This document shows, in pieces, positions 44,915-64,000 of a DNA stretch of 64,000 bases (position 1 is its first letter; each line of letters starts with the position of its first letter). Origin of the DNA: an uncultured Bacilli bacterium (lineage in GTDB: Bacteria > Bacillota_I > Bacilli_A > RF39 > UBA660); assembly GCA_934101175.1 (NCBI GenBank), contig CAKOQC010000006.1, forward strand, positions 7,292 through 71,291, read 5' to 3'. Below the pieces are notes generated by a model. That model saw nothing but the letters and a program-made list of their open reading frames with translations, searched no databases and was not told the origin of the DNA. The position numbers and the translations under genes are program-made.

Positions 44915-44951
44915 AAAGATAAAATCGTCGCACCAAGCGATGTTAATGATT

Positions 44952-44977: not shown

Positions 44978-45007
44978 TGCTATTGCAAAGAAAGGGTGTG
45001 ATGTGGT

Positions 45008-45280
45008 ATGATTAATATCGTAAAAAAGAAAATCAATATGAGTGATGAACTCAAAGCCAAAATTAATTGGTCTTGCAAATTTAATAAGAAATCCTATCAA
45101 ATAATTGAAGGATACTTAAGAATTGTGGAACATACTAATTTAGCGTATGTAGAGCCACATAAAGTAATTATTGGAGATAAGTTATACCTATTCTTCAATG
45201 AACAGAAACATTTTTACATAGGGAATTTAAAGAATAAAATCCCATTGTCTGAATTATCAGAGTACATAGCAAGGCATTAA
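45008..45280 (+). CDS. Hypothetical small protein (90 aa) between tRNA-Gly and the recombinase stub
   Basis: The ORF has no recognized motif. It may belong to the outer element. Confidence 0.25.
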   Translation: MINIVKKKINMSDELKAKINWSCKFNKKSYQIIEGYLRIVEHTNLAYVEPHKVIIGDKLYLFFNEQKHFYIGNLKNKIPLSELSEYIARH

Positions 45281-45421
45281 TGAATTGGTGAGTTTATATA
45301 CTCCCACAATATTGGTTGTTTTTGTCGTATAAATAACTAATATATTTCAAAGGTGTCCTTGTTATGTGACACCTTTTTACTTTGGTGCCTTTCATTACTA
45401 AAAGAAAGGAGAATGATAATT

Positions 45422-45505
45422 ATGGATAATGAAAGGAAAATTGCAGGAGTTTATATTCGTGTTAGTACTCATACTCTTAAAAGTGAGAAAAAATTTAAAA
45501 AATAG
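45422..45505 (+). pseudogene. 5' stub (first 16 codons plus RBS) of a large serine recombinase gene whose remainder lies at 54419..56191; interrupted by an inserted element
   Basis: RBS 'aaggag' is 11 nt before the ATG. It translates as 'MDNERKIAGVYIRVST|HTLKSEKKFKK*'. 'YIRVST' is the catalytic-serine motif of serine recombinases. The frame degenerates after codon 16 at the junction. Confidence 0.7.
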
Positions 45506-47099: not shown

Positions 47100-47480
47100 A
47101 TCTAACGGAACACATTTTTAATATACATACTTATTATACCACTTTTACCCTTATTTCTCAAGGTTTTCAGTGATTTTCTCGTTAAAATATGCGATTAAAA
47201 ATTGTTCCAAAATTTCTTGTAAAGTTTTACCATTTTCATTAAATGTACTTGTTATTTTCATAAGTTCACCTTTGACTTATGCCGACATAAGAATTTTATT
47301 AAATCCTTTCTCTTTCCTTAAGGCACTTACAATATAACATTTAAAAATAGACATAATCTCGTTCATAAAAATGCTGTAAATGTTCCAAAATCAAAACAAA
47401 AAAAGCCCATAAAATAAGGGCTGACTTAAAAAATGCTACCTATTTTTCGAGTAAAATAAGTAAAAAAAGATATAATTATT

Positions 47481-47530
47481 TATGATATTTTTTGATACTT
47501 TGTGATACTTTATGATACTTTATGATACTT
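47481..47530. repeat. Five tandem 10-bp direct repeats (consensus TnTGATACTT) with helical phasing
   Basis: The sequence is 'tatgatattt tttgatactt tgtgatactt tatgatactt tatgatactt'. It is followed by 'tccttatacgtgtatgtgtta', which resembles the attR-side sequence. Confidence 0.7.
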
Positions 47531-47819
47531 TCCTTATACGTGTATGTGTTATAATAATAATGAAAGGAAAAGTATATTTAAAGAAAAAAATATAAAAAAA
47601 CTATAACATTATATTTATTTGTTTAAGTCGAAAAATAGGTATTTAAAAAGCCTGAATGTCAATAAATATAAGGCTTTTATTATTTTTAAAATGGAACACT
47701 ATTTTAAAAAAAGTGCACCTTTTTTTGAAGATATTGTTTGTTATAATTAAAGCACAAAGGGAAAAGATAACGCGTTTGAAACTTTGTAAAAAGAATTAAA
47801 TGTTTAGAAATGAAAGGAA

Positions 47820-48110
47820 TTGATTAAAATGGAAAAACACACATTTGGTTATGAAAAAGATTATTTAAAGGGTTTTGATAGTAGTAAGTGCTTTGGCTAT
47901 CTTGAAGAAGCGGAAATGGACTATAAAGAATACATAGGAGCATTTATTGAAGACTACATTTATAACGAGAAAGACATTAAAAAAAATGATAATTTACTTG
48001 ATAAATTATATGAAAATGCTTTAATTAAGTTTAACTATTTAAGTGTAAGCGATAATGAAATTAAAGATTTTGTGGATAATGAATTAAAAAATATGAAAGG
48101 AAATGATTAA
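47820..48110 (+). CDS. Hypothetical protein (96 aa), gene 1 of a 4-gene cargo operon
   Basis: It is acidic with no recognized motif, and is tightly linked to the next gene (2-nt gap). Confidence 0.3.
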   Translation: MIKMEKHTFGYEKDYLKGFDSSKCFGYLEEAEMDYKEYIGAFIEDYIYNEKDIKKNDNLLDKLYENALIKFNYLSVSDNEIKDFVDNELKNMKGND

Positions 48111-48112
48111 AA

Positions 48113-48460
48113 ATGAATAAAAATTTAGAAAGATTTATACCAATATTTAATACTTGGAAAGGACAAGTTGATAAAGTAATGCTTGATAATAACATTGATA
48201 GCATAGTTGCAGAACACGAATTTTACAGCCATTTAGCATTTATTTATGACACTATTAAAGGTGGTAAAACTATTTATGACGCATTTGGCGATAATTTAGA
48301 CGAAAGCGAAGATTACATTGTTAGTTATGATATTATTAATGACTTAATAAATGCTATTGATAATTGCTATTATGTAATTGGAACTCTTGATAATAAAAAA
48401 GTTATGGTTATTGACGATAAAGATAGTTATTATCTTGACGAAACAAAAATAAAACTTTAA
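48113..48460 (+). CDS. Hypothetical protein (115 aa), gene 2 of the cargo operon
   Basis: No recognized motif. Confidence 0.3.
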   Translation: MNKNLERFIPIFNTWKGQVDKVMLDNNIDSIVAEHEFYSHLAFIYDTIKGGKTIYDAFGDNLDESEDYIVSYDIINDLINAIDNCYYVIGTLDNKKVMVIDDKDSYYLDETKIKL

Positions 48461-48514
48461 AACTAAAATACAAAGGTTGTCTTAAAGATAACCTTTTTCT
48501 ATGCTATAATATTA

Positions 48515-49624
48515 TTGGAGGGCTACATTATGGGAAAAAGACATAATACCTTAAGCGACGACATTTTTAGAAACTCTAAATATGTTAAAACACTTGAAAA
48601 AGAACTAGGTATTGATAATTTTAGAAAAGAATATAAAGAACAATACGACATAATGCTAAACATCTATAAGACCTTTATTTTGATTAACAATATTATTTTT
48701 GCTGATAGTAATAAATCAATAAACGATAAAATATTTGAAATAGAACTTGAACTTGAAAAATGTTTATTTGGCTCTGATGATAATGATAGTGAAAAATACC
48801 AATACAGCACTAGAACAATTAAAGGGCTACTAGATAGCAATTCAAGAATATTATTTAATAAGTTTATTGAGTGGTATGACTATTTAATGAATATTAATAA
48901 ATTAGACCAAGTAAAAAAAGATTTTGAAGAATTAATGAATAAATTAGAGTATGTTGGTTTTGATAATGTCATTAAAGGCAAAATTGAGTATAAAAAAAAT
49001 AAAGATAGTAATTACAAAATCTTTATTAGTAAGTTTAATAATTTGTATGTTGAAAATAAGGCATTTTTAGACCAATACAAGCAAGATTATAATAATACTT
49101 ATGGAATTGACTTAAGCGATAATGAAATGCTAGAAATAGCCTTTATTTACGATATGGTGGCTAGTGCTAATAATGGACTTGCTTACTTCTATTCAAGTGA
49201 AGATATTAGTAATTATAACTTAAGTGAAAAATCTAGTTATAAAGATTATTATAGTGCTTATTTAAGTGCTTTAAATATTGATTTTTGCGACAATACTTTA
49301 TTTGAAAAAAATACCGAAATATTTATGCAAAGATGTTTTAAAACAATTAAAAGAATAGAAAAACAAGGTAAAGATGTTTCATTAAATAAGTTTATTGCTA
49401 ACTTTGATTATTATTACTTTAGAGAAAACTTTAGAATAATTGCAAAAAAGCCTAATACTATTAAAATTAAAAATGATTTATTAAATAAAATTGTTAAAGA
49501 TTTAATAGAAATCTATAATTTAATAGAAAATGAGGAAGAAATAGAAAATAACTATCAGTTGGCTTTTGATAAGGTGCAAAATATAATTGATAGAAATAAA
49601 AACTTTTTTGAAAGGTTGAGTTAA
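48515..49624 (+). CDS. Hypothetical protein (369 aa), gene 3 of the cargo operon
   Basis: It has its own RBS and is predicted soluble, with no recognized catalytic motif. Confidence 0.3.
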   Translation: MEGYIMGKRHNTLSDDIFRNSKYVKTLEKELGIDNFRKEYKEQYDIMLNIYKTFILINNIIFADSNKSINDKIFEIELELEKCLFGSDDNDSEKYQYSTRTIKGLLDSNSRILFNKFIEWYDYLMNINKLDQVKKDFEELMNKLEYVGFDNVIKGKIEYKKNKDSNYKIFISKFNNLYVENKAFLDQYKQDYNNTYGIDLSDNEMLEIAFIYDMVASANNGLAYFYSSEDISNYNLSEKSSYKDYYSAYLSALNIDFCDNTLFEKNTEIFMQRCFKTIKRIEKQGKDVSLNKFIANFDYYYFRENFRIIAKKPNTIKIKNDLLNKIVKDLIEIYNLIENEEEIENNYQLAFDKVQNIIDRNKNFFERLS

Positions 49625-49626
49625 TT

Positions 49627-50394
49627 ATGAAATCAGTAAATACAATTAAAGTTATGAACGAAGAACAAAAGATAAAAGATTTAATGAAAGCTGACAAAAG
49701 CCACAATTATTTATTCTATAAAAAGGCTTATTCTTTTGTTGAAAATTATATCTTAAGAAAAATAAAAAGCATAGATATTAAAGAAGTCATACCAAAAGGC
49801 GAAAAAATAAGATCAAGTGTTGAAAAGTTTTATTATGAAGAAATGGAAAGTAATGCTGTAATGCTTACAATATTATTGGCAAGAGTTGATTTTGAGGAAA
49901 ATAAATCACCACTATTATTAAAAGATAATGAGGTAGGCTTTCTTGAAAGTAAAGATTTAAGTATTAAAAAAGATATTGGTAATAGAATATTTGATACCAT
50001 TTATAAAAAATATACTTTTGAAAATAAAGTTGAAGAATATTTTGAAAAGTATTTAATACCTATGCTTAATAAGTTAAATGATAATAAAATAATTACTTAT
50101 GATGTTAATTCCGAAGATAAGGAAATACAATTATTAACTAATAAAACAACTGAACTTGTAAAATTATTTATTAATAATAAAATTGGTAATTGCATTAATT
50201 TTTCATTATTCAAGTATGCTTTTAACGAAGAAGAAACTTATAGATTTAACTTTCTTTATAATGACAATGAAAATGCAAGAAATGATTTTGTTGAGATAGT
50301 GAAAGATTTTTTAGAAAATAATTATAATAAAATGGAATTAAAGACAATGAGTAAAGAAACAATGGAGCAATACATTGAGGCAGTAGAAAAATAA
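49627..50394 (+). CDS. Hypothetical protein (255 aa), gene 4 of the cargo operon
   Basis: It starts 3 nt after the stop of gene 3. No recognized motif. Confidence 0.3.
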   Translation: MKSVNTIKVMNEEQKIKDLMKADKSHNYLFYKKAYSFVENYILRKIKSIDIKEVIPKGEKIRSSVEKFYYEEMESNAVMLTILLARVDFEENKSPLLLKDNEVGFLESKDLSIKKDIGNRIFDTIYKKYTFENKVEEYFEKYLIPMLNKLNDNKIITYDVNSEDKEIQLLTNKTTELVKLFINNKIGNCINFSLFKYAFNEEETYRFNFLYNDNENARNDFVEIVKDFLENNYNKMELKTMSKETMEQYIEAVEK

Positions 50395-50524
50395 AGGCTA
50401 CTACCTTTTTTCTTTGCATTATTTTTTTGGTAATAATAAATAGTGCTTAATTAAATCAATTAAATAGTATTCTAGTTTTAAGCAAAATAAAAGAGTATGT
50501 TTTTTACATACACCTTTTATACAT

Positions 50525-50785
50525 CTATTTTTCTTCTTTTGTTTCTTCTTCTAATTCTTCAAATAATACTTTAATAGGAACTCCTAATACTTTTGAAATG
50601 TGGTATAAAGTATTTAAAGAACAAGTCTTAAATGTATCATTTTCTAAATCGCCAATAAAGTTTTCACTGAAACAACATTTTTCAGCAAGTTGTTTTTGCG
50701 TCCAACCTTTAATTTTTCTTTGCTTTTTTATATTTTTTCCTACCCAATAATAAATGTAGTTATTATCTTCTTTAGATACTTTCAT
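50525..50785 (-). CDS. XRE-family HTH repressor-like protein (86 aa)
   Basis: 'IKKQRKIKGWTQKQLAEKCCFSENFIGDLEN' is an HTH_3 motif. It is divergent from the zinc-ribbon gene cluster. Confidence 0.7.
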   Translation of the reverse strand: MKVSKEDNNYIYYWVGKNIKKQRKIKGWTQKQLAEKCCFSENFIGDLENDTFKTCSLNTLYHISKVLGVPIKVLFEELEEETKEEK

Positions 50786-50853
50786 TTCTCACCACCACAT
50801 TTTAATTATCTTATATATTTTCACAATTTAACTACTCCGAATAGGTGGGGTTA

Positions 50854-50862
50854 TGGTATAAT
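50854..50862 (+). promoter_or_regulatory. Extended -10 promoter (TGgTATAAT) for the zinc-ribbon gene cluster, in the divergent region shared with the XRE repressor
   Basis: 'atggtataat' lies ~20 nt upstream of the RBS 'aaaggagg'. Confidence 0.4.
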
Positions 50863-50882
50863 AGTATAAAGGAGGTATTATT

Positions 50883-51284
50883 ATGGCAATGATTAAATGC
50901 AAAGAGTGTGAAAAAGAAATGAGCGACCACGCAAAAATATGTCCTCATTGTGGTTATGAGAATAGTATAATGTTTTGCCCTGAATGTGATAAACAATTAA
51001 GTAGTAAGGCAAATATGTGCCCTCATTGTGGCTATGTCTTTAAAAATATTAATAATGGTAGTGATAGTTCTAAAGGCGAAAATTATAATATGGCTTTAGC
51101 ATCTCTTATTTGTTCTTTTTTCGGTATTACATCAATAGTTAGTTTAGTTCTTGGAATTATTGTATTAAATGCTAATAAAGGAAAAACAAATAGTGCAAAA
51201 ACAATGGCTACTATATCGGTAATTATAAGTAGTGTTTTTATGTTTATTGTTTTTCTATGGATAGTTGTATCTTTAACCTATTAA
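50883..51284 (+). CDS. Double zinc-ribbon membrane protein (paralogue 1 of 3)
   Basis: 'IKCKECEKEMSDHAKICPHCGYEN...FCPECDKQL..MCPHCGYVF' gives two CxxC..CxxC ribbons. Two TM helices follow. Confidence 0.5.
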   Translation: MAMIKCKECEKEMSDHAKICPHCGYENSIMFCPECDKQLSSKANMCPHCGYVFKNINNGSDSSKGENYNMALASLICSFFGITSIVSLVLGIIVLNANKGKTNSAKTMATISVIISSVFMFIVFLWIVVSLTY

Positions 51285-51301
51285 AAAGGAGTGTGTATTT
51301 T

Positions 51302-51388
51302 GTGAATATTGGTATGATTTTAATTATAGGAATAGTAATAATTCTTATTATAGTATTATTATCTATTTTACTAAAAAAAGAAAAGTAA
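51302..51388 (+). CDS. Candidate small hydrophobic peptide (24-28 aa, single TM, KKEK tail)
   Basis: RBS 'aaggag' lies 10 nt upstream of GTG 51302 (with an in-frame ATG at 51314). It translates as 'VNIGMILIIGIVIILIIVLLSILLKKEK*'. It sits between two paralogous genes. Confidence 0.3.
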   Translation: MNIGMILIIGIVIILIIVLLSILLKKEK

Positions 51389-51399
51389 GGAGTGATAAA

Positions 51400-51924
51400 A
51401 TGGCTTTAATTAAATGCAAAGAGTGTGGAAAAGAAATAAGTGATACATTAAATGTTTGCCCTAATTGTGGTATAGAAATTAAAAAAGCAAATATAATTAA
51501 CAATAATAAAAATAATCATAATCTTTATGGAAAAATAGATATTTTATTATTTATTTTACTAATGATTTATTCATTGATACGCTTATATTACATAATTACT
51601 GGTATAAAAGATTGCATTTTATCTTTAACTACTATAAAAGGTATTTTGATTTCAACAAAAAACTTATTATTGATAGTATCTTTATTATCATTTTTATGGT
51701 TAACATTTTTATATTTTGAAAAAGGAAAAAATAATTACAAGAAATTAGGGTTTATTTCTTTAATGATTTATTGTTTTACAATGGTTTTTAATTATCTTGA
51801 TTTTAAATTTTTTAGTTTATTAGAAATTTTGAATAATATTCTTATATCAATAATTCCAATTGTAATATTAGGTATAATAAGTTTAAGAATAGGAGAAAAA
51901 AATAATGGCGTTAATAAAATGTAA
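51400..51924 (+). CDS. Zinc-ribbon membrane protein (paralogue 2 of 3)
   Basis: 'LIKCKECGKEISDTLNVCPNCGIEI' is followed by four TM helices. Confidence 0.5.
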   Translation: MALIKCKECGKEISDTLNVCPNCGIEIKKANIINNNKNNHNLYGKIDILLFILLMIYSLIRLYYIITGIKDCILSLTTIKGILISTKNLLLIVSLLSFLWLTFLYFEKGKNNYKKLGFISLMIYCFTMVFNYLDFKFFSLLEILNNILISIIPIVILGIISLRIGEKNNGVNKM

Positions 51925-52465
51925 TAAATGTGGTAAAGACATAAGCGATAGTGTAAAAAAATGTCCTCATTGTGGCTTTGACTTAAAAGATAAAGAAAAT
52001 AAAAAGAAGAAAATAACAATAATAATTAGTGTATTAATTGCAGTTCTTTTAATACCAATACTTATAATAATAATTCAAGAAATTAAAGAAAGTAAATATG
52101 AATTGTCAGATGGTAATGCTTATGAAGTTTATGAAATATTAAAAGACCATCAAAACGATTTTAAAAATCCTAGTTCAGTAAGAGTTAAAAATGCTTTTGT
52201 TTGTAATAATGTGTGGGACATTGAGATAGAAGCAAAAAATGGATATGGAAATACTATAACTGCAACATTTTTAAAAGTTGATAATTTATTTTTTGATATG
52301 AATAACATAAGCGATTATTGTGATACAAATGAAAAAAGAATTAAAGCAATTAATTTTCTACTAGAACAAGAAGACTGCATTAAAGAAGGAAAATCAGTTT
52401 ATGTAAATGAAAAAGACATAACTGCTATAAATAATAGATTAGAAAGAGATAATAAAACTAATTAA
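51905..52465 (+). CDS. Zinc-ribbon membrane protein with extracytoplasmic domain (paralogue 3 of 3)
   Basis: 'LIKCNKCGKDISDSVKKCPHCGFDL' is followed by one TM helix and a ~130-aa C-terminal domain. Confidence 0.5.
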   Translation: MALIKCNKCGKDISDSVKKCPHCGFDLKDKENKKKKITIIISVLIAVLLIPILIIIIQEIKESKYELSDGNAYEVYEILKDHQNDFKNPSSVRVKNAFVCNNVWDIEIEAKNGYGNTITATFLKVDNLFFDMNNISDYCDTNEKRIKAINFLLEQEDCIKEGKSVYVNEKDITAINNRLERDNKTN

Positions 52466-52636
52466 GTAAATCTATTAAAGAGGTAGCCACTTAATTTTAA
52501 TATTGTCAAGTTCTCTTTTACTAAACATAGCCCCTATTAGTTGATTATAGTAATAATAATTGACTTATGAGGCTTTTTATTGCCCTATTTGATAGATAAG
52601 TTATTTGTAATAAACATCTCTTAAATACCTCTTAAA

Positions 52637-52670
52637 TTAAGTTATAAGAGGTGTTTTTTTGTGTCTTATA
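52637..52670 (+). terminator. Rho-independent terminator
   Basis: The hairpin is 'acctctta-aattaagtta-taagaggt', followed by 'gttttttt'. Confidence 0.55.
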
Positions 52671-52782
52671 ATTCATTATAGTTAAGTCATAGTTCTTTTA
52701 GTGTAGTTTTAGTTGTAATTATCTTCTTTTAAGTAGAGGGTGGTAATAAAGACACTCTTTAAGATAATGGAGGTATGAAAAA

Positions 52783-52947
52783 ATGAAATATTACACTACA
52801 AAGGAAATTAGTTGTATGTTAGCACTATCAATTAAGACTATTCAAAAATTAGTAAGAGATAAACAAATAGTTGCTTATAGAATTGGTGGACGATATTTAA
52901 TTAAAGAAAGTGATTTAATTGATTACATACAAAATAAAAAAGCATAG
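52783..52947 (+). CDS. Excisionase-family helix-turn-helix DNA-binding protein (54 aa); candidate recombination directionality factor
   Basis: RBS 'ggaggt' is present. The product 'MKYYTTKEISCMLALSIKTIQKLVRDKQIVAYRIGGRYLIKESDLIDYIQNKKA' matches the HTH_17/Xis pattern ('T..E.A..L.vS..TI.rlv..G.l.a.rvGr...I...dL..y'). It is absent from the ORF track. Confidence 0.6.
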   Translation: MKYYTTKEISCMLALSIKTIQKLVRDKQIVAYRIGGRYLIKESDLIDYIQNKKA

Positions 52948-53011
52948 ACTTAACAACAACTATCAAGTCAATTTAAAATTATAATGTAAAAAATAATCTT
53001 GGAGGGAGGAA

Positions 53012-53350
53012 ATGAAAGACAAAATTAAGTTTGAAGATATTTTTGATTTAACTGATATTGAAAAGACATTTGAGCAAACAATAGAATACGACCTTTTAAA
53101 GTTAATGGAAAAATGGGAAAATGAAAAGAAAGACCAACAAAGAAGACAACAAATAATAAACGAGGAAGACGAGCACATAAAGGAAATAGTAAGAAAAGTA
53201 TTAAAAGAAGAATTGCAAAAGATGTTAAATAGTAAAGGCTTGTTTGGAGAAAAGTTTTTTAGAGAGTTAGAATTACAAGGCTTTAGTCGTAATTGTATTG
53301 GCTGTTTGTATGCTGAAAAAAATTATGCTATGGCTAAAAGAGAATATTAG
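53012..53350 (+). CDS. Hypothetical protein (112 aa)
   Basis: It is charged and helical, with a C-terminal 'CIGCLYAEKNY'. Confidence 0.25.
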   Translation: MKDKIKFEDIFDLTDIEKTFEQTIEYDLLKLMEKWENEKKDQQRRQQIINEEDEHIKEIVRKVLKEELQKMLNSKGLFGEKFFRELELQGFSRNCIGCLYAEKNYAMAKREY

Positions 53351-53494
53351 AATAATAGATAAAGATAGAAGAAATTATCTAAATTGCTATTTTACCCTTT
53401 ATTTATAATGTTTTCTTATAAAAATAAAGGTGTCATACTTGCTACCAATAATTATAAACTTGGTAGCATTTAATGACACTTTAAAGGGGGTTTT

Positions 53495-54019
53495 ATGAGT
53501 GATAATAATATTAAATATTTTGTTATAGACGCCGATAGTGGCGAAGTTATAATTGATGTTTATGATAATCAAAGTTTAAGTGTAATTGAAAAAAAGAAAA
53601 CTAATTATCTTAATGCTACCATAGAACTAAATAAAAAAAAGACTTTTGTTAAATGTTATTGTCTTCCCTGTTTGGAACTTGTTAATGTAGATTTAACACC
53701 TTTTGAAAGCAAAATATTATTAGTTATGGTATCTAATTTAGGTTATGGTATTTATAATGGAATAGTTATTAAAAAATGTAATAATAGATTTATGGACTTT
53801 ATGACAAGTAAAGATATTATAGAAATAGCTAAATGTGAAGATAGCACTTTTAAAAGAGCCATAAAAAAGTTTAGAGAATTAGAAATATTGCAAACAAAAA
53901 GAAAGGGAAATAAAAATATTTACATCTTAAACCCCTTTCTATTTGCAAAAGAAAAAAGAATACCTAAAACATTATTTGAAATGTTTAGAAATAGTAAATA
54001 CAATTACTTAAATGAGTAA
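53495..54019 (+). CDS. Putative winged-helix replication/DNA-binding protein (RepL-like)
   Basis: It is 174 aa. The C-terminal 'SKDIIEIAKCEDSTFKRAIKKFRELEILQTKRKGNKNIYILNP' is wHTH-like. The size and context resemble Firmicute RepL initiators. Weak call. Confidence 0.3.
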   Translation: MSDNNIKYFVIDADSGEVIIDVYDNQSLSVIEKKKTNYLNATIELNKKKTFVKCYCLPCLELVNVDLTPFESKILLVMVSNLGYGIYNGIVIKKCNNRFMDFMTSKDIIEIAKCEDSTFKRAIKKFRELEILQTKRKGNKNIYILNPFLFAKEKRIPKTLFEMFRNSKYNYLNE

Positions 54020-54083
54020 ATGCACCACCTATAATAAATAGTATAAATAAAGAGATAAGATTAAAGTTCTTATCTATATTTAA

Positions 54084-54317
54084 TTACTTATTTATTAATT
54101 TATTATAAAGTTTTCTTTCTTCAACATTGTTTTTTTTAAACTCCATAACAAATAAGGTTGTTAATTCTTTTAACTCTTTCTCTAAAAGTTTTCTATCTTT
54201 ATTACTTAATTTATTTTCTTTTAGCATTTGTCTTAACATAACAACTTCAATAAACATATTATTCATATCTTCAGTAATATTAAATCTTAAATCATTTAAT
54301 TTAGTAATTTTTTTCAT
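54084..54317 (-). CDS. Hypothetical small coiled-coil protein (77 aa) at the right end of the inner element
   Basis: ORF only. Confidence 0.2.
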   Translation of the reverse strand: MKKITKLNDLRFNITEDMNNMFIEVVMLRQMLKENKLSNKDRKLLEKELKELTTLFVMEFKKNNVEERKLYNKLINK

Positions 54318-54388
54318 TTTCTATAACTCCTTTATAATTTTATTGTATATCTTAAATGTGCTCCGATATAGATTATATAATACTTTGA

Positions 54389-56191
<1,803 letters not shown>

Positions 56192-56198
56192 TTAAATT

Positions 56199-56552
56199 AT
56201 GAATATTGAATATAAAAAATTTGGAGACTATTTATTACCTAATTTGGTAATAGAAAATCAAAATTATAGAGAAATAAACAAGTATGGGTTATTAAGACTA
56301 GAGTATATTAAAGAACACAAAAAAGGATTATATCAATCACTTTTAATGAAGAACGAACTAACAAACCACCTTCTTTCAGTCAGTATTGAGGCAGAAGAAA
56401 AATTTAAATTTTTAATGGAGAACTATATTAAAAATGATGAAAAACTATCTGAAAAAAGTAAAGAAAATAATCAACTTGAATGGGTAAAATTGATGAATAA
56501 TTATAAAGATACTGCTGAAGAAATTATTCTTAAAGAGTTAATTTATGTCTAA
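56199..56552 (+). CDS. Small protein (117 aa) between recombinase and relaxase
   Basis: Its position is analogous to tnpV in Tn4451-type mobilizable transposons. No sequence motif was recognized. Confidence 0.3.
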   Translation: MNIEYKKFGDYLLPNLVIENQNYREINKYGLLRLEYIKEHKKGLYQSLLMKNELTNHLLSVSIEAEEKFKFLMENYIKNDEKLSEKSKENNQLEWVKLMNNYKDTAEEIILKELIYV

Positions 56553-56617
56553 TGTTGTCATAAGCGAGCAACGGGCTGGTACTCCCACCATCCCAAAAGA
56601 AAGGATATACCATATAA

Positions 56618-57919
56618 ATGGCGACAACATCAATTTGGAGTATTAAGAATAATTTAAAGCAGTCTATAAATTATATTATCAATCCTGAAAAAACTACTAA
56701 TGAAAATTATGGTGAAGTTGACTATGATTATTTAGAAGGTAAAAAAGATTATAATTTCAAAAAAGAAAAAGTTTGTTATGTAAGTACACTAAATTGTGAT
56801 GAAAGTAATCCCTATGATGATATGTGTGATACAAAAGATTATTTTAGAAAAAAAGATGGCATTTTAGCATTTCATGATTATCAATCATTTAAAGAAGGAG
56901 AAGTTACTCCAGATATTGCTCACGAGATAGGTGTTAAGTTTGTTAATGAAATGTTTAAGGATTATGAAGTGGTTGTTGCAACACATCAAAATACTAACCA
57001 TATACACAATCATTTCATAATCAACTCTGTTTCTTGTAAAGATGGTAAGAAGTATAATAACAATAGAACTAATCTGGCTAAGTTAAGAAATATATCTGAT
57101 TCAATATGTGCTGAATATGGTCTATCTGTTTTAGACGAGGATATTGGATATAAAAGCACCTATAATCATAAAGTTATAAATAATGATTATTACAAAACAC
57201 TGAAAGAAGATTTAGATAATTCTATAAGTTATTCAGTAACCTTAAAGCAATTATTTGAAAGAATGAGAAATATTGGTTATAAAGTATATTTTCGTAGTGG
57301 TGTTATAACTATTTATAGAGATGGTGAAGATAAAGTAAGAATAGAAAAAGCATTTGGTGAAGAATACTCAAAAGATAAATTAAATGAAAGATTATACTCA
57401 TCAAGACAAATAGTATTTAAACCTATGTCTCAAAAATCTATCTTTGAAGAATACTGTAAAACTAATAAACCTCATAAAGGTATCTATGGATTATATCTAT
57501 ATTATTGTTATTTATTAGGAGTATTCCCAAAGAAACACCCTAAGCAATACCTTCCTTATTCAATTAGAAAAGAAGTTTACAAATTAGAGCAAACTTCACA
57601 GCAAGTTAGATTCATGCACGAGAATAATATTGTAACAAAAAATGATTTAGATAACTTTGCTAAAAGTAATAATGAACAATTAAGTGAGTTAAAAGGTAAA
57701 AGAGAAAATCTTTGGAAAAGATACCATAGAGCAAAAACTGAAGATAAACAAAATGAAATACTTGCTGAAATAAATGATATCCAGCCTAAAATTAAAGAAC
57801 TTAATAAGTATGATAAGTATTGTAAAGAGATAACCAAACGAGCTGAAGGCATACAAAATAATCTTAATAATTTTGATAAAGATATCCAAAAAGAAAAAGA
57901 CAATTCTAGGTCTATGTGA
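56618..57919 (+). CDS. MobA/MobL-family relaxase (mobilization nuclease)
   Basis: It has an N-terminal relaxase domain with the 'ATHQNTNHIHNHFIINSV' histidine triad (HxH..H) and a Tyr-containing N-terminus 'MATTSIWSIKNNL'. The C-terminus is a coiled coil. Confidence 0.75.
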   Translation: MATTSIWSIKNNLKQSINYIINPEKTTNENYGEVDYDYLEGKKDYNFKKEKVCYVSTLNCDESNPYDDMCDTKDYFRKKDGILAFHDYQSFKEGEVTPDIAHEIGVKFVNEMFKDYEVVVATHQNTNHIHNHFIINSVSCKDGKKYNNNRTNLAKLRNISDSICAEYGLSVLDEDIGYKSTYNHKVINNDYYKTLKEDLDNSISYSVTLKQLFERMRNIGYKVYFRSGVITIYRDGEDKVRIEKAFGEEYSKDKLNERLYSSRQIVFKPMSQKSIFEEYCKTNKPHKGIYGLYLYYCYLLGVFPKKHPKQYLPYSIRKEVYKLEQTSQQVRFMHENNIVTKNDLDNFAKSNNEQLSELKGKRENLWKRYHRAKTEDKQNEILAEINDIQPKIKELNKYDKYCKEITKRAEGIQNNLNNFDKDIQKEKDNSRSM

Positions 57920-57932
57920 CTTAAATTGTCTT

Positions 57933-59921
57933 TTATATTTCGCCAATCAATTTATTAGCTTTTTCATTTTCTTCTTTAGTTATTTTTATTTTATATTTTT
58001 TGCATATAAATTCAACTAACCTATGTGAAAATTTTGCTTTTGGAATCAGTGTATCTAAAATTCCTATTAGACTAAAGACTAAAGAAAATACAGAATAAAA
58101 ATTAATATTATTATTTATAAAAGAAATTATTGATATTACCAGACAACTTATTATAATACTTACCATTAAGGTATAATATATAACATTAGAAATATTATTA
58201 AACTTGTTAACTTTTTTATTTATTTCTATATCTGCATTGTCGATAATATTCTTTTTCATTGATTCAATTTTTATATCTTTTTTTATACTTCTTTCTTTGG
58301 TATCTATTAGTTCATTTTTTGTTTTTCTCAATTCGTCATCTTTATCTTTAATATAGTTTCCAAAATTCTCTTTTGTTACATTATCAGGATTATTTTCGAC
58401 CATTTTAATATAATCACTACAATATTTTAGATAATTTTTAGATAATAGCTGACTTACTCCATCAATATCGCTAATTAATTTATCTCTTTTTATATCTTCC
58501 AAATATTTATTTGCTTTTTCTATTATTTTGGGGTTTGGATCAGTTGCGGCAAGTGCATTTTCAATCAATCTTAATTTTGGTAATTCATTATTTTTAGAAA
58601 AATCCTTAAACCAAAGGAAAGTTGTTAAATCTAAATCATCAATTACCAACCCTATTTCTAAATCATCAATTTCTTTCATAACTTGTTTTGAAGCATATTT
58701 TAAATAATAGAAAGTTGTTACAAAAATATGTGTACAATTTTCTAATTTTGAAAACTTTCTTCCTTTTCTTAACATATTAATTGCACATACAGAATTAACA
58801 TCATTAGTTATTGCTTTACCTTTATTATAACTAATATCTTTATTGTTATAGTATTCTTTTAACTTTTCTTCAAGGCCAGCAACATCAATTACATCTTTAT
58901 ATTTATCTTCTGTATAATCAGGTGTACTAACTATTTTTATTCCTAATTCTTTAAATCTGTTTTCCAAGTTTGAGATAGCCATATCTACTTGTGTTTCAGT
59001 ATATTCTTTTAAATCAAAATATTCTAATGTAGATTCTTGAAAAGTTCCGATATGTTTTTTATAGAAAGTCATAATATTTATTACTTCTAGGTAATTGTGT
59101 TCAAAGCAACATATATTTGCTCTATATTTTTTTAATAAATTAAACAATTCTTGGGCTGAAACATTTTCTTCTTTAGTTTTGTATCCCAAAACCCTCAATA
59201 TAAATGGTGCGTCTAAATAACAATTTAAATTTTTTAATGTTGAAGTATTATCGTTTTCTATTTGCATATATATTACATTAGCAATCATATACCCTTCAAA
59301 TATTTTCAATATTTCATTAAATAATTCAATGTTATCTTTAGATATATTATAAATATATTCTCCAATGCAGTAATTTATATAATCCGATTTAGGATTTATT
59401 GTTTTTATTGATAAAATATTATTATATGTATTATATCCATAACTATCTATAAAGTTAGATAAAGCAATTTTTGTTTCTTCTTTTGTTATTCCTTGTATTT
59501 CATCTATTAAGTGTTCATATATAAAATCAATAACGGTTGACATCTTTTGCTTTGCTTGTCCCAATCTATTTGAAAATAGATTATAATCATCTTTTAAGTC
59601 TTTTTTTAAAATAAATTCATTATTATCACGCATCAAAATATGTTTTCTAGTCATTCTTTTTAAAATAACTTCTAAAATAGCGTGAGGAAAATTATTAAAA
59701 GAAAACTCATTTTTTAATTCTTCAATTATTTGTTCTCTATCAGTTTGGTCATTTATTTTATAATTCTTATAAATAATGTATTTGATAAATGGTGTAATAA
59801 GTTCAATATTATCTTTATGTGTTTCATCCCAAATTGCAGTTAATATTGATGTACTTATTAATGCTGAGTCATTATTCATATAATTATCCTCCCTTCTATT
59901 TTCTAAAAGTGTATTTATCAA
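57933..59921 (-). CDS. Large hypothetical protein (662 aa) with two C-terminal TM helices
   Basis: It is predicted soluble until ~residue 560, then 'VIYYTLMVSIIISCLVISIISF' and 'VFSLVFSLIGILDTLI'. No recognized catalytic motif. Confidence 0.3.
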   Translation of the reverse strand: MINTLLENRREDNYMNNDSALISTSILTAIWDETHKDNIELITPFIKYIIYKNYKINDQTDREQIIEELKNEFSFNNFPHAILEVILKRMTRKHILMRDNNEFILKKDLKDDYNLFSNRLGQAKQKMSTVIDFIYEHLIDEIQGITKEETKIALSNFIDSYGYNTYNNILSIKTINPKSDYINYCIGEYIYNISKDNIELFNEILKIFEGYMIANVIYMQIENDNTSTLKNLNCYLDAPFILRVLGYKTKEENVSAQELFNLLKKYRANICCFEHNYLEVINIMTFYKKHIGTFQESTLEYFDLKEYTETQVDMAISNLENRFKELGIKIVSTPDYTEDKYKDVIDVAGLEEKLKEYYNNKDISYNKGKAITNDVNSVCAINMLRKGRKFSKLENCTHIFVTTFYYLKYASKQVMKEIDDLEIGLVIDDLDLTTFLWFKDFSKNNELPKLRLIENALAATDPNPKIIEKANKYLEDIKRDKLISDIDGVSQLLSKNYLKYCSDYIKMVENNPDNVTKENFGNYIKDKDDELRKTKNELIDTKERSIKKDIKIESMKKNIIDNADIEINKKVNKFNNISNVIYYTLMVSIIISCLVISIISFINNNINFYSVFSLVFSLIGILDTLIPKAKFSHRLVEFICKKYKIKITKEENEKANKLIGEI

Positions 59922-60043
59922 AAATAATTATACAATAATTCGACAAAAAAATCTATAATTGATAATTAATATAAGCAATATTTTAATTATTGAATTATAA
60001 TATTAACCAATTTTATGGTAAAATATTATATGGGTGATGTATC

Positions 60044-60838
60044 TTGAATATTTATAAAAGTTTAAATGAAATAACTGAGTATATTGATAAGAATTTAGAA
60101 GAAGAAATAAGTTATGAAGTTCTATCAAAAATGCTAGGTGTTAATGTCTATACAATGCAAAGATTATTTACTATGATAGCAGGTATCCCTCTTGCTGAAT
60201 ATATTAGAAAAAGAAGATTATCTAGTGCAGGATATGATTTATATGAAGGTAATTTAAAAGTAATAGATGTTGCTTTTAAATATCAATATGATAATGCTAC
60301 ATCATTTTCAAGAGCATTTGAAAAATTTCATGGAATTAAACCAAGTTTAGTAAATAAAGAAACGAAGTTAAAAAACTTCCCTAGAATAGTATTTAACGAA
60401 GATATTAATATTACTACTGAGTTAGATTATGAAATAATTAATCTAGACGAATTGAATTTATATGGTATTAGTATTACTACTAATAACGATGAAATAGGTA
60501 AAGATGCTCCTGTATTTTTTAGACAAACTGAAGATAAATATTATAACAAGTACGGTGAAGTTAAATATGGAATGATTACTTATGATATAGAGCGTGAAGA
60601 AAGTCAAAAGTATTATTGCTTATATGATAAGAAAATTGAAGAATTTGAACATATTAAAATACCAAAAAGTAAATGGCTTAGATTTAGAATCAATTCACAA
60701 AATGCTAAAGATATACAAGAAACATCTCATAAATTCTATGGAGAATTCTTACCATCAGTTAAATATAATTTAAAAAAATTACCTGAGTTAGAATACTATC
60801 ATGATGGCGTAACTGACTTCTTAGTAGCAATTTATTAA
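60044..60838 (+). CDS. AraC-family transcriptional regulator with GyrI-like effector-binding domain
   Basis: The N-terminal AraC HTH reads 'ISYEVLSKMLGVNVYTMQRLFTMIAGIPLAEYIRKRRLSSAGYDL'. The C-terminal ~150 aa resemble a GyrI-like small-molecule binding fold. Confidence 0.7.
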   Translation: MNIYKSLNEITEYIDKNLEEEISYEVLSKMLGVNVYTMQRLFTMIAGIPLAEYIRKRRLSSAGYDLYEGNLKVIDVAFKYQYDNATSFSRAFEKFHGIKPSLVNKETKLKNFPRIVFNEDINITTELDYEIINLDELNLYGISITTNNDEIGKDAPVFFRQTEDKYYNKYGEVKYGMITYDIEREESQKYYCLYDKKIEEFEHIKIPKSKWLRFRINSQNAKDIQETSHKFYGEFLPSVKYNLKKLPELEYYHDGVTDFLVAIY

Positions 60839-60914
60839 ACTGACAAAACTGATTATTAAAAAGTCAGTTTTTTATTTTGTATTTTTGTTATACTCTTTTA
60901 CGAGGTGACGGATT

Positions 60915-62774
60915 ATGGGGTTAACGTCAGAAATATATCTAACTAAAAAATTTGTTTCGAAGGAAGAATGGTTAGAGTTAATTAATACAATATCAAATTA
61001 TAATGGTTTTTTAAAAAAATGGAAAATTATTATCACTAATGATAAAAATCAAATTAGATACTTTGTTAAAACTAGATGTAGTTTACCAGCAACAATAAAT
61101 AATTTAAATTCATTTTTATTAAAACCTGTAAAAGAAATTAAAGTTCCAAAACATAATTATACATTACTTTCCTTGCCTAAAGTTGGTAGTAGTATTATAG
61201 ATTTAATAAATTATAGTGAGATAAGAAACAAGGGAACACTAAAATATCTTGAAATAAGTTTTTTAAAATTATATGAAGATAAGATTAAATCAAAAATAAA
61301 GTTTTATCTTAATAAAAATGGTGTAATTAAAAAATATAATGTTATATTTGCTATTCCAACAAGTATTTTATCAGTAGATTTTGGAGGAAATAAAAGATAT
61401 TTCTATAAGAGTTCTCCTAAATATTTGGAAATTAATAAAATATTACATTTATTAAATACTGATTCTAATAATGCACTATTATCTGTTGATACATTTCCAT
61501 ACTTACAGGGTAATTTCTATTTAAATCAAAATAATTTTAGTTTTGATAAGCACTCTGTCATAATAGGTTCTTCTGGATGTGGTAAATCTAAGTTTATAAG
61601 CCTTTTAATCAATAATATTAATAAAAATGAAAATTTAAAAAGAAAATATAAAGTTGTAGTAATAGATCCACATACTTCACTTGAAGAGGACATTGGTGGT
61701 ATTGGAAAAGTAATTGACTTTAAAAGTAATTTAGATAGTATTGACTTATTTATTAATAACAATGATGATATTGTAGCATCTACAGAACTATTATTAGATT
61801 TATTAAAATCATTAATTGCTGATCAATATAATTCAAAATTAGAAAGAGTCTTAAGACATTCAATACATTTATTATTAACTGATGAATCATTTAATTTTAG
61901 AAATTTAAGAAGACTTATTTTAGATTTAGAATATAGAAATAATTTAATAAAGAAATTAAAATATAATTTACCAGTTAGTGTAATAGATTTCTTTCTATCA
62001 GATTTTAATGATTTAAAAACTAAATCTTATGGTGAAGCAATATCTCCAATTATAGGTTTTATAGATGTAATGGAAATGATACCTGTATTTAATAGAGAAC
62101 AAAATAGTGAGAATTTAAAAAATACTATTCATGATAATTTCCTAACTTTATTTTCACTAGATAGAACAAAACTTGGAGATAAAGTGACTAAAACAATATC
62201 AGGATTAATAATGCAACAGTTACTTACTATAATTCAAAAGAGAGAGATTGACGAACATATTATTTTTATTATTGATGAGGTTGCAGTAGTTGAAAATCCA
62301 ATTTTATCTAGATATTTATCAGAAGCAAGAAAATATAATTTATCGTTAATATTAGCAGGACAATATTTTAATCAAATATCAGATGAATTAAAAAGCTCTA
62401 TATTTGCAAACGTTATTAATTACTTTATATTTAGAGTTTCAAAGTTAGATGCTAATGTGTTAGTAGATAATTTTAATATGAAAATACCTCTAGATGATTC
62501 TAGAGATAGAAAAATCAAATTATTAACTGAGCTTAATAACAGAGAATGTATTGTAAGAATAGATTCCAATGGGGTATTATTACCAGCATTTAAAGGTGTT
62601 ACACTAGATTATACAAGCATTCCTAGAATTAAAAGAGCAATTACAAGTAATAACAATAATATAAACGAAGATAACTCAAATAAATCTAAAACTAATTTTA
62701 GTTTGAATAGTAATGTTAGTTTAAAAGATATCTTAATATCTAATTCTTCAAGTAGAAAGGTTGTGAAAGAATGA
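60915..62774 (+). CDS. HerA/FtsK/TraG-like P-loop ATPase (DUF87-type), soluble
   Basis: Walker A is 'VIIGSSGCGKSKFISLL', then 'KVVVIDPHTSLEE'. Walker B is 'HIIFIIDEVAVVE', and 'RKYNLSLILAGQYFNQI' is arginine-finger/sensor-like. There are no TM helices. A ~210-aa N-terminal domain has unknown function. Confidence 0.6.
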   Translation: MGLTSEIYLTKKFVSKEEWLELINTISNYNGFLKKWKIIITNDKNQIRYFVKTRCSLPATINNLNSFLLKPVKEIKVPKHNYTLLSLPKVGSSIIDLINYSEIRNKGTLKYLEISFLKLYEDKIKSKIKFYLNKNGVIKKYNVIFAIPTSILSVDFGGNKRYFYKSSPKYLEINKILHLLNTDSNNALLSVDTFPYLQGNFYLNQNNFSFDKHSVIIGSSGCGKSKFISLLINNINKNENLKRKYKVVVIDPHTSLEEDIGGIGKVIDFKSNLDSIDLFINNNDDIVASTELLLDLLKSLIADQYNSKLERVLRHSIHLLLTDESFNFRNLRRLILDLEYRNNLIKKLKYNLPVSVIDFFLSDFNDLKTKSYGEAISPIIGFIDVMEMIPVFNREQNSENLKNTIHDNFLTLFSLDRTKLGDKVTKTISGLIMQQLLTIIQKREIDEHIIFIIDEVAVVENPILSRYLSEARKYNLSLILAGQYFNQISDELKSSIFANVINYFIFRVSKLDANVLVDNFNMKIPLDDSRDRKIKLLTELNNRECIVRIDSNGVLLPAFKGVTLDYTSIPRIKRAITSNNNNINEDNSNKSKTNFSLNSNVSLKDILISNSSSRKVVKE

Positions 62775-63469
62775 ATGATACTAAAGCACTAGAAATTGTT
62801 AATAAGATATTTAAAAGTGTATTCGATAAAGAAAATAATTATTCTTTAGATACACTTTTAGAAAAGTTTGCATTTGATGTTAAGTTGCCCAAACAAGTTA
62901 ATGATTCAACTACAAATGAAATAACTTGGGCAGATTCAATTAACAGTGGTAGATTTATCACAAATAAAAATATGGAAAAAAGAGATGAAGAAACAGGTTG
63001 GATGCTTCCTAAAAAAGAAATAAGTAATTTACAAGAGTTAATTGATATATGGAACACTATTAACTTAACTACAACCGAAAGAGTTTATGATTCTATTAAT
63101 GTAGCAAAAAGTGATACTATTTATAGATGCGAAAATGTTTATAGAAGTACCGATTGTAGTGATTCAAAAAATATGATTTACTGTGATTCTTGTGGTAATA
63201 GTGAATTCTTACTTGCGTCTCAAAGATCTGGAACTTGTAATTTCTGCATAAGATGTGATGACTCTAAAGATTGTAGCAATAGTTATAATGTTATTTGTTC
63301 TAATAAAGTAAGTAATTCATTATTTATTCAAGATTGTTTTGATTTATATGAATGTATGTTTTGCTCACATATTGCATCAAAAAGATTTTGCATAGCAAAT
63401 ATGCAATTTGAAGAACAAGAATATTATGAAATCAAAAAATTAATTATAGATTGGATATTAAATTCATAA
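62771..63469 (+). CDS. Cysteine-rich hypothetical protein (232 aa), translationally coupled to the ATPase
   Basis: The start overlaps the ATPase stop (atgA). The C-terminal half has ~17 Cys in CxxC/CxC clusters ('YRCENVYRSTDCSDSKNMIYCDSCGNSEF...CNFCIRCDDSKDCSNS...CMFCSHIAS'). Confidence 0.5.
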   Translation: MNDTKALEIVNKIFKSVFDKENNYSLDTLLEKFAFDVKLPKQVNDSTTNEITWADSINSGRFITNKNMEKRDEETGWMLPKKEISNLQELIDIWNTINLTTTERVYDSINVAKSDTIYRCENVYRSTDCSDSKNMIYCDSCGNSEFLLASQRSGTCNFCIRCDDSKDCSNSYNVICSNKVSNSLFIQDCFDLYECMFCSHIASKRFCIANMQFEEQEYYEIKKLIIDWILNS

Positions 63470-63613
63470 AAACTTGCATAAAAAATACTAGTACGAGTAT
63501 ACTAGTATTGACAATTATCATTAAAAATGGTACTATTGTCATATAAGAACTCTGTTCAATCCGAAGCTTTACGTTTAGTACGTGAAAGGTTTATGTAGGA
63601 AGAATGGAGTTTT

Positions 63614-64000
63614 TTATTTTGAATTTTTAGTTAATGATGAATCAAATATACTATTTTTAGATTTAAAGCACCAATGTCTATACGGATCTTTCCAATTATT
63701 AGTTATATCATTACGATAACTTGTAGAAACTCCAATATTAAAATTAGGATAGATAGTTTTAATATTTCTTAATATATTTTTATATAATTTTTCTTTTGCA
63801 ATAGTTCTCTTGCCTCGTCTATTACTGCCTGGCATTTTTTCTTTATCCATATTATTTAGTTTAAAGTTCATAGTACCTAATATAATATCCATACATTGTA
63901 ATATAACATGGTTTTTAGAATCTACTTCTGCTATATCTTCGTTGTAAATATGAACATTGTTAATACAAAAGAAATCATTAAGTGCATAAATATATCCCTT
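63614..64000 (-). CDS. Hypothetical protein, partial (runs off the right edge of the window)
   Basis: The reading frame stays open upstream of the annotated Met ('...KGYIYALNDFFCINNVHIYNEDIAEVDSKNHVILQCMDIILGTMNF...') with no stop before position 64000. Confidence 0.35.
   Translation of the reverse strand, partial: KGYIYALNDFFCINNVHIYNEDIAEVDSKNHVILQCMDIILGTMNFKLNNMDKEKMPGSNRRGKRTIAKEKLYKNILRNIKTIYPNFNIGVSTSYRNDITNNWKDPYRHWCFKSKNSIFDSSLTKNSK

Follow-up and report, generated by a model that had tools for sequence, protein, structure and literature searches.

An FtsK/HerA-superfamily ATPase linked to a new family of predicted solenoid proteins in gut Bacilli and archaea

Near the downstream end of a 64,000-nucleotide (nt) stretch of contig CAKOQC010000006.1 from an uncultured Bacilli bacterium (this whole stretch is called the window here), a gene for a HerA/FtsK-like ATPase is followed directly by a gene for a protein that resembles no recognized family, and the question raised by the locus is what the two proteins do together. 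A sequence-only reading of the window had described a soluble ATPase coupled to a Cys-rich partner on mobile DNA, next to an AraC/GyrI-like regulator, and had likened the pair to anti-phage systems. It had placed both open reading frames (ORFs) correctly:

60915-62774, + strand: ATPase ORF, 619 amino acids (aa), from the ORF listing
62771-63469, + strand: partner ORF, 232 aa, from the ORF listing

A HerA-type ATPase with a dedicated partner is a known arrangement; the partner family is new. The answer that we favor, with a probability of about 0.45 for the model as a whole, is that the two proteins co-function as a motor-partner complex with a cellular role, in which the partner serves as an adaptor or gate. 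We are much more certain that the two genes function together than that the partner is an adaptor or gate. The superfamily includes DNA pumps, secretion motors, virus-packaging enzymes, and recently solved anti-phage machines, and an ATPase branch that has its own N-terminal domain (N-domain) and is tied to an obligate partner with a new fold would extend that list by another way of working. The partner also marks a conserved piece of uncharacterized biology in gut bacteria and in Micrarchaeota-type archaea, whose cell biology is largely uncharted, and the compactness of the system (3.5 kb, with a putative inducer-sensing regulator) makes it experimentally tractable. Searches of open-access literature text turned up no description of the pair; comparative-genomics surveys may list the ATPase under generic names.

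The ATPase stop codon and the partner start codon share the sequence ATGA, a 4-nt overlap; that stop and start overlap had been noted in the sequence-only reading. Homologues of each protein fall into more than 1,400 clusters at 90% identity, and the two frequently share a contig. When one genome per GTDB species was scanned, 390 stretches with a relative came back, and the best 80 of these loci form our gut-clade sample; all come from metagenome-assembled genomes labeled uncultured Bacilli, Tenericutes, Mollicutes, or Erysipelotrichaceae, Ca. Coprovivens and Ca. Ventrenecus among them. The ATPase gene lies directly upstream of the partner gene at all 71 assessable loci of the 80, and the stop-to-start distance is between -20 and +5 nt in all 82 loci measured (-8 in 32 and -4 in 22). 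This linkage is far beyond chance, and it persists as the bacterial partner drops to ~28 to 40% identity (loci L091 and L093); at L091 the pair is intact with a partner of 40% and an ATPase of 36% identity. The sequence-only reading would have been undermined by a partner that was absent or poorly conserved, and the partner is instead present at every homologous locus. Across the 80 species the partner is 74 to 100% identical and more conserved than the ATPase (53 to 95%); the regulator, at 56 to 95%, diverges in parallel with the pair. The partner is under strong purifying selection in a large clade of uncultured gut bacteria with reduced genomes. Homology to the window begins at 60009-60021 and ends at 63457-63474 in locus after locus, which defines a conserved module of 3.5 kb (60009-63474). 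Species of one genus share flanking genes, which are unrelated between genera. Because flanks are shared within genera and the partner is so similar across species, the module looks vertically inherited in the gut clade.

Three parts can be distinguished in the ATPase:

60915-61529, + strand: N-terminal domain (approximately residues 1-205), family-specific
61530-62618, + strand: FtsK/HerA-superfamily P-loop core, placed by Pfam, the PDB profile search, and invariance in 20 orthologues
62619-62774, + strand: C-terminal tail of ~50 residues, low-complexity and rich in Asn, Ser, and Lys, and the stop codon, placed by sequence

All of the motifs quoted in the sequence-only reading are in the core (GSSGCGKS at position 218, VVIDPH at 248, IIFIIDEV at 449, RKYN at 472, and LAGQ at 480), and the protein has no transmembrane (TM)-like segment, the best 19-residue Kyte-Doolittle mean being 1.43. 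Its classification as a soluble HerA/FtsK-like ATPase was borne out by Pfam: DUF87, the central domain of HerA, matches at 32.1 bits against a cut-off of 23.2, and TrwB_AAD_bind matches the C-terminal half of the P-loop domain at 26.3 bits against 20.5, while TraG-D_C, FtsK_SpoIIIE, and AAA_10 match below their gathering scores. Conservation was scored over 20 orthologues, bacterial and archaeal, in which Walker A (G218-S225), D251-P252-H253, the Walker B pair D454-E455, R472-K473, and Q483-Y484-x2-Q487 are invariant. These residues, together with the DUF87 match and the PDB matches given below, place the protein in the FtsK/HerA superfamily, and its catalytic residues are intact. A third homologue search, with a three-sequence ATPase profile, returned the same close relatives only, which kept the ATPase alignment shallow. 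Against the PDB, the 20-orthologue profile retrieved anti-phage HerA subunits first (E 1.6e-7), followed by FtsK (5e-3) and TrwB (0.04), with alignments that span only the Walker A region and a short C-terminal stretch, 'E-x-RK-Y/F'.

The ATPase resembles those of the HerA-NurA, Sir2-HerA, and DUF4297-HerA complexes in its FtsK/HerA P-loop core, in the 'DPH' that follows Walker A, in the 'E-x-RK-Y/F' stretch, in a dedicated partner encoded in the same operon, and in a separate N-domain that precedes the core. Its sequence similarity to them does not extend beyond the Walker A region and the short C-terminal stretch, however, and the HAS-barrel of HerA is not detectable in its sequence (the structure model is poor). 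The partner, moreover, is unrelated to NurA, Sir2, or DUF4297, and its gene is multiplied up to eightfold in archaea. The HerA_antiphage model of NCBIfam (NF042943) reaches 17.3 bits against a cut-off of 800, and the partner has no Pfam or PADLOC match that would place the pair with the Sir2-HerA or DUF4297-HerA systems. We found no NurA gene at the 82 Bacilli loci of the gene-order table or among the conserved neighbor families of the archaeal loci. Since there is no NurA gene and the family scores lie far below their cut-offs, the ATPase is not HerA proper.

The N-domain of the ATPase (~205 aa) has no match in Pfam, NCBIfam, or the PDB, in keeping with the earlier description of a distinct, unrecognized domain. 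It aligns with the N termini of bacterial and archaeal orthologues, with E6 and P148 invariant, and it co-occurs with the partner across bacteria and archaea. AlphaFold models residues 1-145 with a predicted local distance difference test score (pLDDT) of ~80, and a Foldseek search with the domain gave nothing significant, the best local match being the origin-binding domain of SV40 T-antigen (E 0.4). The C-terminal tail has a pLDDT below 35. No relationship between the partner and the N-domain was found with hhalign.

What kind of protein is the partner? Neither its single sequence nor a profile has a match in Pfam, NCBIfam, PADLOC, or the PDB, which agrees with the initial impression of an unrecognized family. 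It can be divided as follows:

62771-63085, + strand: N-terminal alpha/beta domain (residues 1 to ~105); pLDDT 82-96 over residues 1-100
63086-63385, + strand: beta-solenoid (residues ~106-205), placed by the hexad register and AlphaFold
63386-63469, + strand: C-terminal signature, terminal helix (residues 206-232), and stop codon; pLDDT 89-98 and family alignment

According to the AlphaFold model (pLDDT 86.6, predicted template modeling score 0.80), in which strands come at intervals of 6 or 12 residues between an alpha/beta N-terminal domain and a C-terminal helix, the gene encodes a putative alpha/beta head followed by a narrow beta-solenoid rod and a terminal helix. The head carries a conserved FAFD..LP motif, of which P40 is almost invariant. 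The solenoid comprises ~16 hexads of the form x-[S/C]-x-[N/D]-[V/I/C]-x with a small residue at every third position, and the autocorrelation of the sequence peaks at lags of 3, 6, 9, 12, 15, and 18. Such a 6- or 12-residue repeat with small residues (Cys, Ser, Thr, Val) every third position is also found in the Tenebrio molitor antifreeze protein and in the left-handed beta-helix hexapeptide proteins (gamma-carbonic anhydrase, acyltransferases). The antifreeze protein has the coil TCTxSxxCxxAx, and a 3+3 spacing of inward residues is typical of very narrow 12-residue coils; the inward small residues of the partner are likewise spaced 3+3, not 4+2. These tight solenoids differ from the partner, which is cytoplasmic, has an added N-terminal domain and a helix signature (CIANMQF), and has interchangeable Cys residues. 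Pfam Hexapep matched none of 11 family members. Foldseek searches of the PDB and BFVD with the partner model returned left-handed beta-helix proteins only, and weakly (E at least 0.07, template modeling score below 0.25); in the profile search of the PDB the sole solenoid was the Tenebrio antifreeze protein (1EZG), at a nonsignificant E of 4.7.

The conserved part of the partner is its C-terminal signature, C-I-A-N-M-Q-F...E-Y after C-M-F-C, more than its Cys content. About 17 Cys in CxxC and CxC clusters had been described at first; three CxxC motifs are indeed present (at 138, 156, and 195), but the protein has 13 Cys and no CxC. In an alignment of 43 members (24 to 100% identity), C207 and N210 are the only invariant positions, and P40, in the head motif, S114, F197, C198, I208, Q212, and Y218 are conserved in at least 90%. 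The remaining Cys positions are occupied by Ser, Thr, or Val in relatives, and a CxxCxxC motif is limited to close relatives of the partner. 'Cys-rich' is thus not a defining trait of the family, in which C207 is invariant and C198 nearly so. A Zn or Fe-S site in the Cys clusters was considered and appears unlikely, because none of the candidate ligands is kept in every orthologue (Ser, Thr, or Val stands in for each of them in at least one), and disulfides or metal sites essential to the partner likewise seem unlikely. We read the Cys and Ser residues as probable small core residues needed by a narrow solenoid, not as metal ligands. As we define it, the family has an alpha/beta head, ~16 hexads, and a C-x-F-C...C-I-[AG]-N-x-Q/E signature with its helix; in its bacterial part the partner gene lies directly 3' of the ATPase gene.

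How far does the association reach? An exhaustive search of 1.84 billion representative proteins found 331 partner-related clusters, and among those listed ~30 are proteins of 510 to 540 aa with two copies of the whole fold. An alignment of the archaeal branch of the family matches that of the bacterial branch over its full length (hhalign probability 100%, E 8e-43), and the C-terminal signature is common to both. At locus L010, where the ATPase is 25% and the partner domains are ~24 to 28% identical, the linkage is kept: downstream of the ATPase gene come a double, two singles, and the beginning of another copy. The double is annotated as coming from a Candidatus Micrarchaeota archaeon. L008 has six tandem partner paralogues after the ATPase gene. 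A scan of metagenomes yielded 74 archaeal-branch loci with arrays of up to eight partner genes beside ATPases of 565 to 919 aa, and the arrays are built of doubles (~525 aa, with the fold present twice in full) or of singles (~255 aa) that lie side by side in pairs. The greater length of the longer ATPases is accounted for by disordered tails of ~130 to 350 aa, acidic and then Lys-rich, where the window ATPase has its short tail. Some of them turn from acidic to a Lys/Ala-rich, histone-tail-like composition (L161:13951-16707, - strand; L098:189-2318, + strand; L135:10760-13444, - strand). Separately, genes for TnpB (Cas12f-like) and for a helix-turn-helix (HTH) protein lie just upstream of the ATPase gene of L008, a locus that may be bacterial or archaeal (L008:1-1074 and 2037-2498).

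Because partner paralogues within a locus are 30 to 56% identical and orthologues between loci reach 80 to 87% identity in kept order, the archaeal copies appear to be old and specialized, not rapidly diversifying. Conserved regulators adjoin the archaeal arrays as well: 14 loci have one of a double-winged-HTH AsnC/Lrp type, and 13 have one of the HTH_10 type. The other neighbors are mostly housekeeping genes: RtcB, deoxyhypusine synthase, Glu/Gln-tRNA synthetase, and arginine and purine biosynthesis, and also NDK, RIO kinase, RFC, and ribosomal protein L11. TnpB, AbiE, or PDC-type genes occur in a few cases, and HicA is found near some loci. The alternation of doubles and singles had also invited an analogy with double and single jelly-roll capsid proteins, which we rejected: the predicted fold is a solenoid, the neighborhood is one of housekeeping genes, and no relative was found on the viral contigs scanned.

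The archaeal arrays bring up the possibility that the partner is a client of the ATPase, which would unfold, assemble, disassemble, or export solenoid proteins in the manner of EccC/EssC of type VII secretion (T7SS). EccC/EssC is an FtsK-like ATPase that handles arrays of paired substrates with a conserved C-terminal signal. As many as eight paralogues beside one ATPase, as pairs or fused doubles, and the occurrence of partner units away from any ATPase would suit this relationship; the highly conserved C-terminal helix and tail of the partner could be a recognition signal, and the best NCBIfam match of the ATPase is T7SS EccCb (E 2e-5), if only over the Walker A region and at 23 bits against a cut-off of 347. 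Yet no TM segment is present in the ATPase, and none of the gut or archaeal loci encodes a conserved membrane protein. The window partner has no hydrophobic stretch, and none of the partner sequences read has an N-terminal segment resembling a signal peptide. Bacteria, furthermore, have one partner gene only, whose overlap with the ATPase gene is conserved, and genes arranged in this way more often encode subunits of the same complex than a motor together with its cargo. We regard a client relationship as quite unlikely.

Under the motor-partner model the question becomes how the pair is controlled, and the remainder of the conserved module bears on this:

60044-60838, + strand: regulator of 264 aa with an AraC/XylS-type HTH and a GyrI-like/Cass2 domain, placed by Pfam
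60838-60873, + strand: hairpin AACTGAC...GTCAGTT with an 18-nt loop that holds a second ACTGA, followed by a T-run; sequence and 57-locus alignment
60886-60908, + strand: candidate promoter and ribosome-binding site of the ATPase-partner operon, by consensus only

The adjacent AraC/GyrI-like regulator that had been proposed is supported by Pfam, with HTH_18 at 58.9 bits, Cass2 at 39.7, and GyrI-like at 38.4, each above its cut-off, so that it has both domains of the AraC/XylS regulators of the Rob/Cass2 type. Its best NCBIfam match is RobA, at 67 against an equivalog cut-off of 380, which makes it a family member, not a Rob orthologue. It lies directly upstream of the ATPase gene in 51 of the 66 assessable loci. 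The 75-nt spacer between the two genes was aligned for 57 homologous loci and is almost invariant. Within it the hairpin, with two direct copies of ACTGA and one inverted copy, is near-invariant, its 18-nt loop included, even though the proteins of these species have diverged to 56 to 95% identity. It looks like a terminator of the regulator gene; because it is more conserved than a plain terminator needs to be, it may also be an operator or an RNA element. An extended -10 element (TGtTATACT, 60886-60894) and a ribosome-binding site (GAGGTGA, 60902-60908) follow, and the columns TG.TATAcT and GAGGTGA are conserved in the 57 loci.

A drug-sensing regulator of the GyrI type could point to a response to xenobiotics or DNA toxins, in which the solenoid would be a nucleic-acid mimic or shield that the ATPase loads or removes. 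Qnr and MfpA are pentapeptide-repeat proteins, and MfpA works with the small GTPase MfpB, so that the mfp conservon offers a precedent for the pairing of an NTPase with a beta-helix protein. The frequent adjacency of the Rob/Cass2-like regulator fits this idea, as do the rod shape, the terminal helix, and the net charge of -10 of the solenoid protein. However, the partner is only moderately acidic with its charge evenly distributed, it has no pentapeptide-repeat homology, and its period is 6 or 12 residues, not 5. The regulators of the archaeal loci are unrelated to AraC/GyrI, and no topoisomerase or efflux gene is associated with the homologous loci. A role in xenobiotic stress is, in our estimate, very doubtful.

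We therefore return to the motor-partner complex, whose workings might be as follows. A ligand-sensing AraC/GyrI gene would be followed by the conserved hairpin and by a two-gene ATPase-partner operon with its own promoter. By analogy with the superfamily, the ATPase would be a ring-forming, ATP-driven translocase or remodeler, and the two proteins would act as one stoichiometric complex. The N-domain of the ATPase, which would take the place of the HAS-barrel of HerA, may dock a partner dimer, and the partner could then be the substrate-selecting or gating module of the motor, as NurA, Sir2, or DUF4297 is for HerA. We propose such a complex because bacterial linkage is strict, the gene overlap is conserved, and the N-domain and the partner are codistributed. 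The partner unit is probably a dimer because one double is equivalent to two adjacent singles; gut Bacilli would have a homodimer, and archaea, whose genomes seem to keep several anciently diverged, nonredundant versions, either a fused double or two paired singles. The role would be cellular, either housekeeping or stress-inducible, and in Bacilli it is probably switched on by a small molecule via the GyrI-like domain. We favor a cellular role because of the strong conservation, the flanks shared within genera, the archaeal housekeeping context, and the absence from the phage and viral collections searched.

Several observations weigh against this model. A physical interaction between the two proteins is suggested by operon structure and the HerA precedent only, and regulation of the operon by the AraC/GyrI protein by adjacency alone; at 15 of the 66 assessable loci the regulator is not next door. 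The partner has no recognizable catalytic or binding motif that would lend direct support to the terms adaptor and gate. The AlphaFold model of the whole ATPase is poor (pLDDT 45.7), and the Foldseek results obtained with it were uninterpretable apart from the weak local match of the N-domain. Of the 12 archaeal loci that span 15 kb or more, six (L115, L116, L120, L137, L160, and L164) have one partner unit, either a double or a pair of singles, and no ATPase gene within ~10 kb; the partner may therefore function independently of the motor, or the motor may serve it in trans. In 8 of the 80 loci, as counted from the gene-order table, the module is abutted by a large serine recombinase gene, downstream of the partner in L014, L015, L017, and L040 and upstream of the regulator in the window, L013, L032, and L060; the borders or flanks of the module may be recurrent, favored integration sites. 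Finally, defense-type genes are neighbors at some gut loci: mad3 (1e-70), PDC-S01, PDC-S04, DrmC, dCTPase, GajA-like ATPases, and WYL.

These neighbors lead to the interpretation that the sequence-only reading had put forward, an anti-phage or anti-plasmid system of the 'HerA plus effector' kind in which the ATPase senses or translocates invader DNA and the solenoid is a new effector or sensor. The nearest PDB relatives of the ATPase profile are the Sir2-HerA and DUF4297-HerA subunits (E 1.6e-7 to 1e-5), and in PADLOC the best match of the ATPase is mad8 (PDLC04140; 4.3e-14, from Walker A to Walker B), with HerA models at 1e-9. A two-gene unit with sharp homology borders in varying contexts would also be at home among defense systems, and AbiE and HicA toxin-antitoxin genes near some archaeal loci join the gut neighbors just listed. 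PADLOC matches to ATPase, SMC, and radical-SAM models, however, are generic and have no background rate to compare with. As to MADS (mad1 to mad8), the window ATPase resembles mad8, but the locus has none of the other seven mad genes, and no mad gene corresponds to the partner; the searched portions of the text of the paper that introduced MADS contain no description of mad8. The partner itself has no PADLOC match and no nuclease, NADase, or other effector motif. Defense genes are typically patchy and turn over fast, unlike this module, which is found in all 80 species sampled with conserved local synteny and with a partner more conserved than its ATPase. In archaea the arrays sit amid housekeeping genes, and the paralogues are ancient and conserved in order. 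With inheritance that looks vertical, this archaeal context, no trace in the phage records and viral contigs searched, and no PADLOC model for the partner, the defense interpretation was not supported, and we consider it unlikely.

If the cellular role that we favor is taken further, the pair could be the minimal bacterial form of an ancient, unrecognized ATP-driven machine of DPANN-type archaea and wall-less gut Bacilli. A ring motor and specialized solenoid dimers or pseudodimers, as many as eight to a locus in archaea, would then build a structure of a new kind in the cytoplasm or on the nucleoid, or else a system that selects substrates, outside the known roles of the superfamily (DNA end resection, chromosome segregation, conjugation, secretion, virus packaging, and defense). 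We put this forward as speculation that is probably not correct.

The placement of the pair on mobile DNA remains to be considered, together with the other genes of the window. Upstream of the module lie the following:

44891-45468 and 54408-59921 (also L013:1050-7146): mobilizable-transposon-like element, ending ~90-120 nt upstream of the AraC/GyrI gene
45469-54407: apparent nested insertion of 8.9 kb, absent from L013 and L060
45495-47099, - strand: serine recombinase of 534 aa, the 8.9-kb segment's own recombinase

The transposon-like element encodes a large serine recombinase, TnpV, and a MobA/VirD2 relaxase, and its opposite strand has a gene for a 662-aa protein whose C-terminal region looks hydrophobic; the relaxase, TnpV, and recombinase genes are 3 to 6 kb upstream in the window. 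Genes of this element are found near the regulator in 3 of the 80 loci only (L013, L032, and L060). Because the element ends upstream of the module and is absent from most homologous loci, it is a separate insertion, a neighbor and not the carrier of the module, and the claim that the pair is on mobile DNA did not hold up.

A mobile-element function would make the ATPase a coupling protein (like TcpA, TraG, or VirD4) or a viral packaging ATPase, and the partner a structural protein. Besides the relaxase element nearby, the TrwB_AAD_bind match above the Pfam cut-off and the weak TraG-D_C match recall type IV coupling proteins (TrwB/VirD4/TraG, TcpA), and there are weak PHROG matches to families of unknown function, phrog_5156 for the ATPase (3e-18) and phrog_15341 for the partner (5e-6). 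Unlike coupling proteins, the ATPase has no N-terminal TM anchor and no conjugation neighbors, and TrwB itself was matched at only E 0.04 in the PDB. No type IV secretion system genes occur at any locus or among the shared neighbors in the gut gene-order table. Since there is neither a TM anchor nor a conjugation context, the idea of a conjugative coupling protein is refuted; the sequence-only reading had already doubted a classic one. The viral side fares no better: the partner fold is a predicted solenoid, not a jelly-roll, a scan of 2.9 million viral contigs with the partner alignment brought up no relative, and in protein-level searches (tblastn) neither the bacterial nor the archaeal versions matched any of 50,697 phage records. 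Among 72,556 plasmids the partner had no match and the ATPase five distant ones only, below 28% identity. A near-identity DNA search of 54000-64000 against plasmids and phages was also without a match. We judge a mobile-element function extremely improbable.

The mobile DNA upstream of the module has a layered structure of its own. Window positions 44891-45468 are contiguous with 54408 onward in L013 and L060, and the match of the recombinase at 54542 starts only at position 48 of the 145-position Pfam Resolvase profile, which suggests that the 5' end of its gene was cut off by the 8.9-kb insertion. On the other side of the module, just downstream of the partner, the Rfam DUF3800-VIII motif (RF03075) matches at 63546-63613 on the + strand with 56.6 bits, above its gathering score of 40.2 (E 4e-9). 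The motif directly adjoins the stop codon of an ORF on the opposite strand (63614-64000, - strand) that has a weak DUF3800 match (E 0.006). In L016 and L024, homology to the window continues beyond the module into this DUF3800 region.

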